From: a virus
Taxonomy: Duplodnaviria > Heunggongvirae > Uroviricota > Caudoviricetes
DNA: 31,448 nt
Strand: one strand, 5' to 3'
Virus record (IMG/VR): IMGVR_UViG_2526164666_000034
Part shown: positions 4,923 to 5,541 of the stretch, piece after piece
Position numbering within the stretch: position 1 is the stretch's first letter
Layout of the letters: each line of letters begins with the position of its first letter
Translations under genes and position numbers: made by a program
The notes under the pieces: generated by a model
Seen by the model: the letters and a program-made list of their open reading frames with translations, nothing else
Databases searched by the model: none
What the model was told of the DNA's origin: nothing

Positions 4923-5156
4923 ATGTTAAAATCAACTCTTATTGCTAAATGCCTTTATCAAAATCGCATGGTAAGCAGCATTTCAATAGGCGAGTCTGCA
5001 GTTAAAAGTATTTTCGAAGAGTACTTTCCCGGGCATGATTTTAATAAATGGAATACCAAATTACCGCCAGCAGTTTCAACGCGTATTCTGAAAGCAACCG
5101 AAAGAGCAAGTACAATTCGCGTTAACTATTTCATTAAAGATTTGTGGGATCTTTGA
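4923..5156 (+). CDS. Hypothetical 77-aa protein in an AT-rich island, convergent with the operon
   Basis: ORF with a strong Shine-Dalgarno (AGGAGGG) just upstream of the ATG; visibly AT-rich; 3' end overlaps the convergent 135-aa ORF by 23 nt. No recognisable family. Confidence 0.4.
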   Translation: MLKSTLIAKCLYQNRMVSSISIGESAVKSIFEEYFPGHDFNKWNTKLPPAVSTRILKATERASTIRVNYFIKDLWDL

Positions 5157-5541
5157 TATCCACAGAGCCTAAAGTATGTGCATATGGATGTGCTATTATG
5201 CGCCCTCGCAGATTTGCATCATTTTCTAAATTCACTGAACGAAACAGGGCATCAACAAGGCTCTGTACAATGCAAAGGCAATCGAAGACTGTCGCCGTTT
5301 CTGTTTTGATTGATGAAAGAACATGGCCATTCACGCAAACAGAAATTACCCGTTTATTAACATCGCTTTCCTGCTTTTGATTATCAGAACCATATAGCCC
5401 AGAAAAAGCATTGCGCACATTACGAACCATATTATCGATGGTTTCTTTTTCTGCGGTACTAAGGTCAAGAGTAGCCAGTTGTGAACGAACTATATTCGAT
5501 GCCATTTCCTGTAATGGCGTTGGTAAATCTTTAAATTCCAT
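5134..5541 (-). CDS. Hypothetical 135-aa protein in an AT-rich island between ydfC-like and dicF
   Basis: ORF in operon orientation starting 20 nt after the ydfC-like stop, GAGG-type RBS; AT-rich relative to flanks. No recognisable family. Confidence 0.5.
   Translation of the reverse strand: MEFKDLPTPLQEMASNIVRSQLATLDLSTAEKETIDNMVRNVRNAFSGLYGSDNQKQESDVNKRVISVCVNGHVLSSIKTETATVFDCLCIVQSLVDALFRSVNLENDANLRGRIIAHPYAHTLGSVDIKDPTNL

Follow-up and report, generated by a model that had tools for sequence, protein, structure and literature searches.

Accessory genes in the early-left region of lambdoid phages include sieB of lambda and sieB/esc of P22, where a prophage factor blocks the lytic growth of a superinfecting phage and the phage has its own escape product. 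The rex/ren genes follow the same logic of effector and escape. In P22, an antisense RNA (sas) sets the balance between an exclusion factor expressed from the prophage and a phage-encoded escape protein (PMC12197685). In this study, we analysed a stretch of 31,448 nucleotides from a tailed phage (IMG/VR record IMGVR_UViG_2526164666_000034; hereafter the window), the early region of a lambdoid prophage that is integrated at ompW in enterohaemorrhagic Escherichia coli (EHEC). We show that two small convergent genes between ydfC and DicF, here named S and P, are real genes and constitute a conserved two-gene accessory module of temperate phages. Like the sieB loci, the module resides in the early-left region. 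However, sieB encodes Esc internally and in frame whereas P is a separate convergent gene, and SieB is a membrane protein whereas S has no membrane segment. No Pfam match pointing to SieB homology was obtained for S, P or members of their families at E<=1.

Type II toxin-antitoxin (TA) systems resemble the pair in that two small linked proteins are encoded on a mobile element, one partner being conserved and the other modular, with orphan copies of the modular one. Type II TA genes, however, are co-directional, co-transcribed and auto-regulated, whereas S and P are convergent and, in 172 of the 173 pairs, share nucleotides at their 3' ends. Neither a co-directional operon nor a known toxin or antitoxin superfamily was found for S/P, and the two proteins differ from type II TA partners also in lacking a known toxin or antitoxin fold, a PADLOC match and a conserved acidic/basic contrast. 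The pair is not of the hok/sok-like type I either, as both strands encode conserved soluble proteins without a membrane segment. DicF is the only Rfam family near the pair; a sok antitoxin RNA (11703..11852, plus strand, 103.9 bits) lies at a distance. In pore-forming colicin operons, a repressed effector gene converges on an immunity gene that has a promoter of its own. S/P is similar in that a repressor-controlled gene faces a small gene of opposite orientation, and in that, among the E. coli cassettes, a constant N-terminus is combined with variable C-termini matched by variable partners. In contrast to the immunity proteins of pore-forming colicins, which are integral inner-membrane proteins, S is soluble; P has no colicin domain and often occurs without S. 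Regarding its genetic setting, the window contains a dicB operon of the type known from the Qin prophage (ydfABC-dicF-dicB-ydfD), with ydfC, DicF, dicB and the DUF1482 gene (ydfD) in this order and a DicA/DicC-type switch. Compared with Qin, the window has the pair as an additional, optional element that separates ydfC from the DicF precursor; K-12 lacks it, and prophages of other genera carry the module without DicF.

A conserved pair of convergent, overlapping genes

S (4923..5156, plus strand, 77 aa, WP_000920491.1) is antisense to the dicB-type operon, which is encoded on the minus strand. P (5134..5541, minus strand, 135 aa, WP_000394552.1) is in operon orientation. Both products are hypothetical proteins in RefSeq. 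A first-pass annotation of the window had singled out these two open reading frames (ORFs) on opposite strands, with 3' ends overlapping by 23 nt and a strong ribosome-binding site ahead of the smaller one; the coordinates match the ORF list exactly, and the other two features were found as described. The Shine-Dalgarno sequence of S, AGGAGGG (4913..4919, plus strand), is located 3 nt ahead of the ATG and also serves the small genes that stand in for S in other cassettes of E. coli; P is preceded by GAGG at 5548-5551. The convergent coding overlap (5134..5156; TTAAAGATttgtgggATCTTTGA) is an imperfect inverted repeat, encoding KDLWDL* of S and KDPTNL* of P. Judged by this geometry, S and P would be transcribed antisense to each other.

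The linkage of the two genes extends far beyond E. coli. When hidden Markov models of both families were run on six-frame ORFs of the loci, a convergent P domain was present in 97 of the 99 loci recovered through S, the exceptions being a contig end and one distant metagenome-assembled genome (MAG). Conversely, 76 of 80 IMG/VR loci recovered through P contained a full-length convergent S. The 3' overlaps measure 23, 26, 30, 33 or 51 nt, and a single pair has none. No stretch is better conserved across genera than the overlap DNA (ATTAAAGATCTTTGGGATCTnTAA), in which the frame of S (IKDLWDL*) hardly changes and that of P is variable. Linkage holds in Escherichia, Serratia, Dickeya, Xenorhabdus, Photorhabdus and Yersinia as well as in Klebsiella, Citrobacter, Hafnia, Erwinia and Proteus, and the isolated temperate phage Evi carries the pair. 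A Bryobacterales MAG of the Acidobacteria with 59% GC (L102, OZ252030.1) has the convergent pair with a 30-nt overlap and at a native GC content of 57%; its neighbours there are a cro-like gene and a repressor of the S24 type. In a Psychrosphaera MAG (L104), which like L102 is far removed from Enterobacterales, an S homologue was present and the P domain was not detected. P occurs without S at three loci (L213, L225, L237), in 201-aa proteins of the B type described below and in many 124-aa proteins, and it stands beside broken copies of S at L103 and L180. Intact S without P was seen nowhere but in the two exceptions named above. Of the earlier suggestion that S and P are a linked defence, anti-defence or TA-like pair, the linkage stood, with 95-98% co-occurrence and a convergent overlap; the functional labels are hypotheses, and neither protein has a match in PADLOC, Pfam, NCBIfam or PDB.

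S is the better conserved of the two, which answers an objection named beforehand, namely that the 77-aa ORF might lack conservation and coding signal. Its homologues form 33 clusters of 55-100% identity, mostly of exactly 77 aa, in hosts such as Klebsiella/Raoultella, Dickeya, Xenorhabdus, Salmonella, Morganella, Yersinia and Serratia. Across genera, including Proteus and one Acidobacteria MAG, identity is 55-72%, and 24 residues are invariant in the family. Non-synonymous divergence (pN 0.12-0.30) is well below synonymous divergence (pS 0.59-0.88, with synonymous sites saturated), and S is thus under purifying selection. The full-length protein matches the profile phrog_10348 (E=1.1e-47, 'unknown function'). 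An AlphaFold2 (AF2) model of S is all-helical with five helices and a predicted local distance difference test (pLDDT) score of 96.5; the fold has no relative in PDB or BFVD. One public source lists S as 'dGTP triphosphohydrolase' and all others as hypothetical; we judge the former a mis-annotation, a helical protein of 77 aa being too small for this enzyme. In a Serratia prophage (L004, 3548..3781, plus strand) a second 77-aa ORF lies in tandem directly upstream of S; it has 19% identity to S and is unrelated.

P is modular. The full-length protein matches phrog_1363 (E=4.8e-47, 'unknown function'), is nearly limited to Escherichia and gave an AF2 model with a pLDDT of 68. Neither S nor P has a membrane segment (maximum KD19 0.59 and 1.58 for the two proteins). 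The N-domain of P (aa 1-55; 5377..5541, minus strand) has two predicted helices and is common to the alternative E. coli cassette proteins with unrelated C-termini; its PHROG matches are confined to residues 1-63, and homologues sharing only the N-terminus are 124-212 aa long. The conserved part is the C-terminal ~76 aa. This C-domain (aa 60-135; 5137..5364, minus strand) consists of a beta-hairpin and helices, carries the motifs VNG..T..A..DY..LE.EAN.SG.TI.H, is matched by phrog_23433 over residues 55-128 and is the partner of S conserved across genera. Outside Escherichia, S converges on a gene of 75-85 aa aligning with P residues ~58-135 at 35-42% identity. A P-domain profile collected 118 clusters across Enterobacterales, with a cross-genus identity of ~30-45% as against 55-72% for S. 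A search of a representative library with the C-domain gave seven matches, of which P0154 and P0156 were dropped as spurious low-complexity repeat proteins. The N-terminus is absent in most genera. Where present, it takes one of three forms. In E. coli it is the two-helix domain 'MEFKDLP'; P proteins of Citrobacter and Yersinia (L095, L174) carry a C4 zinc finger of the ClpX type (PF06689), and others of Yersinia (L008, L179, L181) a YdfC-like coiled coil. Since ydfC lies directly upstream of P in the window, the latter fusion links YdfC and P functionally.

As the first-pass annotation had stated, neither protein belongs to a recognised family. Searches with S, P and neighbouring genes gave no match for either protein in Pfam, NCBIfam or PADLOC, and PHROGs yielded families of 'unknown function' only. 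PADLOC-DB 2.0 returned no family for S, P, YdfC or a 118-aa ORF at E<=1, Pfam scans of both families member by member gave nothing consistent, and PDB profile searches with S and P gave nothing under E=0.7. A literature search found no characterisation of S or P.

The cassette and the polymorphic ydfC-dicF interval

Pairwise alignment of the window with the ydfC-dicF interval of K-12 Qin (NC_000913.3) reveals a single clean indel of 634 bp (4910..5543) with near-identical flanks. This AT-rich cassette contains the two ORFs and the S ribosome-binding site and nothing else, in agreement with the Qin layout given in the first-pass annotation, which has no gene at this place. The GC content is 39.1% in the cassette, 51.4% in the window as a whole and ~46% in the flanking 1 kb on either side; at third codon positions it is ~30% in the cassette as compared to 55.6% in ydfC. 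The AT-rich block noticed at first reading is therefore real. At all eight loci measured, and in the window, the GC content of the S/P module is 2.5-10 percentage points below that of its surroundings. A GC content lower than the surroundings is typical of accessory 'moron' genes.

The cassette is present in 646-659 of 5426 complete E. coli genomes (~12%, about one in eight). The flanking sequences were located at 11,303 places in 4728 genomes, and 679 of these places (~6%) contain the cassette. This small share of places and genomes makes the cassette an optional insert and not a universal Qin gene, a possibility that the first-pass annotation had itself raised against the novelty of the pair. 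Carriers include EHEC of the O157:H7, O26, O111, O121 and O145 groups. Over positions 4400-5900, the window has the same sequence as E. coli O26:H11 11368 and as many EHEC genomes, O145 and O103 among them; the cassette sequence is identical in O157:H7. The cassette-bearing prophage also encodes DicF, DicB and virulence cargo.

In the window, ydfC (5564..5782, minus strand) is directly upstream of P, and the DicF small RNA (4537..4588, minus strand; Rfam RF00039, 76.7 bits) follows downstream of the pair. Within the DicA-controlled operon P occupies the third place, and S is located between it and the DicF precursor. Around the pair, Pfam and RefSeq identify ydfC, dicB, the DUF1482 gene and a repressor resembling DicA.

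The slot between ydfC and the DicF precursor is polymorphic in E. coli (loci L012-L014 and L033-L094). Among 80 IMG/VR loci recovered with the P N-domain, we found at least six alternative cassettes, all encoding P-type proteins that open with the same N-domain and differ in their C-termini. Type A, the cassette of the window, combines the 135-aa protein with the small convergent gene S (S77) and a 23-nt overlap. In type B, the P-type protein of 201 aa has the same P domain plus a new 66-aa tail and overlaps an unrelated 63-aa gene by 23 nt. Type C comprises proteins of 106 or 109 aa with a small gene of ~91 aa (overlap 23 or 32 nt). The 124-aa protein of type D usually has no small gene and sometimes one of 73 aa (overlap 11 nt), the 212-aa protein of type E is accompanied by a 73-aa gene without overlap (0 nt), and the 122-aa protein of type F has no small gene. 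The 23-nt overlap recurs in three cassette types with unrelated small genes. In L012 and other IMG/VR loci, the small genes of types A, B, C and D start at a common ..CCTCAGGAGGGTGAA-ATG junction. None of the alternative cassette proteins has a Pfam match. The P domain of the B-type locus L012 is essentially identical in DNA to that of the window, and a second B allele (L053) differs from it with a ratio of non-synonymous to synonymous substitution rates (dN/dS) of ~0.3. From this comparison, the P domain is maintained when S77 is replaced.

Some features of the window lie apart from the pair. The stretch 5855..6211 (minus strand) is annotated as a 99/118-aa hypothetical gene (WP_001240336.1, phrog_21318). 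On its opposite strand, 5877..6077 (plus strand) is a CPxC...CxxC zinc-ribbon ORF (MNTIKFSCPECGG*VFD...CKNCGHLVTEDESSQFDD...) interrupted by one in-frame TAA. At IMG/VR locus L197 the antisense zinc-ribbon ORF is intact, and the operon-sense counterpart of WP_001240336.1 is fused in frame with the P domain. Elsewhere, Rfam identifies the small RNA STnc100 (16153..16325, plus strand, 100.8 bits) and two tRNA genes (15134..15206 and 15300..15373, both plus strand).

Position at the phage switch and the region upstream of S

Outside E. coli, the module directly adjoins a CI-like repressor gene. In five of the eight loci examined, operator-like repeats common to the cI-cro region are found in the gap between cI and P and not upstream of S. 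A consensus scanner detected a 10-of-12 promoter match ~40 nt upstream of P in Klebsiella (L009) and a 9-of-12 match within ~60 nt upstream of P at L178. Operator-like repeats in the cI-P gap and promoter-like sites upstream of P thus make P the first gene of a repressor-controlled early-left operon in these phages, and S is oriented against this operon and faces its CI-controlled promoter. P may be part of a short immediate-early transcript. On the operon-sense strand of L009, ~90-130 nt beyond the start of S, a hairpin followed by a T-run (3899..3911, minus strand) resembles a terminator, as flagged by the scanner, and looks longer on inspection; it parallels the DicF terminator downstream of the pair in E. 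coli. Rfam searches of 11 related loci revealed neither DicF nor any other family beside the module outside E. coli.

The region upstream of S in the window (4589..4922) is antisense to the DicF precursor and is shared with K-12. Two inverted repeats lie in it, GCCGGA..TCCGGC at 4841-4864 and CTCCAC..GTGGAG at 4872-4890. It also has a site weakly resembling a promoter, TTTTCA-17-TAAACT, at 4806-4834. The consensus scanner found no promoter upstream of S in the window, at L009 or at L178, and a looser scan gave 8-of-12 sites only. In other genera (L003-L009, L095-L098, L171-L265), the ~75 nt upstream of the S start form a highly conserved non-coding element. It reads ..GCCTG..TTCACCAC.TCAGGC..GGTGGTATC(C)TT.., also written GCCTG..TTCACCAC.TCAGGC..GGTGGTATCCTT, and could be a promoter with a -35 and an extended -10 box (8 of 12 positions plus TG), a promoter/operator or part of a structured leader. 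The region upstream of E. coli S has partial similarity to this element (window counterpart 4841-4922) and has diverged; the E. coli version is kept in K-12 Qin, inside the DicF precursor. After the element comes a hairpin; its arms co-vary between sequence types (CTTGG/CCAAG, CCTTC/GAAGG, CCTTGC/GCAAGG, TCTCTTAG/CTAAAGAGA), and it usually covers the Shine-Dalgarno sequence of S. We do not claim a leader hairpin masking the S ribosome-binding site, since folding energies (median z -0.87) and Shine-Dalgarno pairing (0.53 vs 0.51 in shuffled sequences) are indistinguishable from shuffled controls. RNAalifold predicted only a stem of 4-5 bp for the element, on either strand. At the Yersinia locus L008, the long gap upstream of S contains a weak tRNA-like Rfam match (3497..3624, minus strand, 38.5 bits, 128 nt).

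Candidate roles of S and P

As the most economical reading, we tentatively propose that S and the C-domain of P antagonise each other as a cognate pair produced at opposite stages of the phage life cycle, S being an effector and P its early antidote. Transcription of P would start at the early-left promoter under repressor control (PL type, in the window that of the DicA-controlled dicB operon), and from such a promoter P would appear only on infection or induction; in most genera it would be the very first early-left product. S would be transcribed from its own upstream region toward the early-left promoter. As both genes share their 3' ends, there is no space for a terminator between the coding regions, and early-left transcription must read through S in antisense. 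Active early-left transcription should hereby shut S off by collision or RNA pairing, and P protein would titrate S protein that already exists. In this model S and P would bind each other, and S would do no harm, or even be of use, in a lysogen and impair lytic growth, as an exclusion or growth-arrest factor would. P might then be the phage's own early antidote, comparable to what is seen in sieB/esc and rex/ren. We favour S as the effector because S is far more conserved, P is modular, and P tolerates loss or decay of S while the converse is unseen. In the E. coli slot, differing C-termini of P-type proteins go along with differing small genes, the pattern expected of cognate pairs. It is possible, if a little more doubtful, that the lysis-lysogeny switch flips a whole, hitherto unrecognised family of effector S/antidote P modules from 'S on' to 'P on' through transcriptional collision and protein titration, providing lysogens with an exclusion or growth control which only the resident phage escapes; the E. 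coli slot would then hold polymorphic cognate pairs that share one N-domain and a translation start region.

Several observations weigh against an S effector neutralised by P. The numbers of orphan P and orphan S on which the polarity is judged are small. In type B, the P domain is under purifying selection (dN/dS ~0.3) while paired with the unrelated 63-aa gene; since it persists there without S, P must do more than neutralise S. No convincing sigma-70 promoter was found for E. coli S with the consensus scanner or the looser scan, and the conserved promoter-like element of the other genera matches at only 8 of 12 positions and overlaps the possible leader hairpin. In sequence and structure searches, S and P are unlike any known toxin, antitoxin, defence or anti-defence family, and these labels apply to the pair as hypotheses. 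The contrast in isoelectric point of the E. coli proteins (S 9.5, P 5.3) is not kept in the families. A charge complementarity of basic toxin and acidic antitoxin, true of the E. coli pair only, was therefore dropped.

The polarity could be reversed, as in colicin/immunity systems, which we regard as unlikely. P would then be an early effector for take-over, growth arrest or anti-defence and S a constitutive small helical inhibitor, guarding the lysogen from leaky P or neutralising the P of superinfecting relatives. The geometry is that of pore-forming colicin operons, S is a compact five-helix protein of the size of an immunity protein, and the first place after PL suits an anti-defence or take-over gene. 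Moreover, variable C-termini and variable small genes around a constant N-domain in E. coli recall polymorphic toxins. However, P-type proteins often occur with no S or a broken S, which an unguarded toxin should not tolerate, and S is much more conserved than P, opposite to most effector-immunity pairs. S also lacks the membrane segment of the immunity proteins of pore-forming colicins, and no toxin domain was detected in P.

Alternatively, S and P might have no relation as proteins, and what matters might be the transcription of S, which would brake the early-left operon through an antisense effect or through collision. Such transcription would reduce leaky expression of the toxic DicF, DicB and YdfD-like gene by read-through, or supply an antisense RNA of the lysogen against incoming P mRNA, the two proteins having separate roles. 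The conserved overlapping convergent geometry speaks for such a brake, as do the place of S just upstream of DicF and dicB in the operon order of the window and the terminator-like hairpin after the module in L009. Precedents are STnc6030 of BTP1, an antisense RNA expressed by the lysogen which excludes phage, and sas of P22 (PMC12197685). A pure RNA role, however, needs no conserved protein, whereas S is strongly conserved with 24 invariant residues and a length of mostly 77 aa. The strict partner of S is one protein domain rather than any first gene of the operon, and downstream genes are wholly different between genera. We consider this explanation rather improbable, on a level with the reversed polarity.

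Less probable still is a pair of lysis-lysogeny regulators, in which P would modulate the switch as an immediate-early product (similar to MOR or an antirepressor, or assisting antitermination at the terminator after the module) and S would be its inhibitor, stabilising lysogeny. It would account for a module that always abuts the immunity region (cI/PL, or, in the Acidobacteria MAG, following a cro-like gene), for P as first early gene and for the terminator-like sites after the module in E. coli (DicF) and L009. Yet K-12 Qin and most copies of dicB-type prophages do without the module, which travels with unrelated repressors of the S24-type CI and DicA type. Neither S nor P shows a DNA- or RNA-binding fold, and in E. 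coli P is the third and not the first gene. The view that one ORF or both arose by chance in AT-rich, non-coding DNA, as their small size and purely hypothetical annotation might suggest, is refuted by conservation across genera in clusters of mostly 77 aa, by pN well below pS, by the pLDDT of 96.5 for S and by PHROG families for both.

The S/P pair is a solid candidate for experiments, being orphan, widely conserved, located beside immunity regions and, in E. coli, in a hypervariable slot. Should S and P prove to be an effector-antidote pair wired to the switch, this would be a new exclusion or toxin-antidote architecture, convergent, overlapping and controlled by promoter collision. It would explain the hypervariable slot of a very common prophage operon and give two orphan folds a testable function. 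Even if the proteins are functionally unrelated, the near-universal tail-to-tail overlap is a natural case for control by convergent transcription beside an immunity region.

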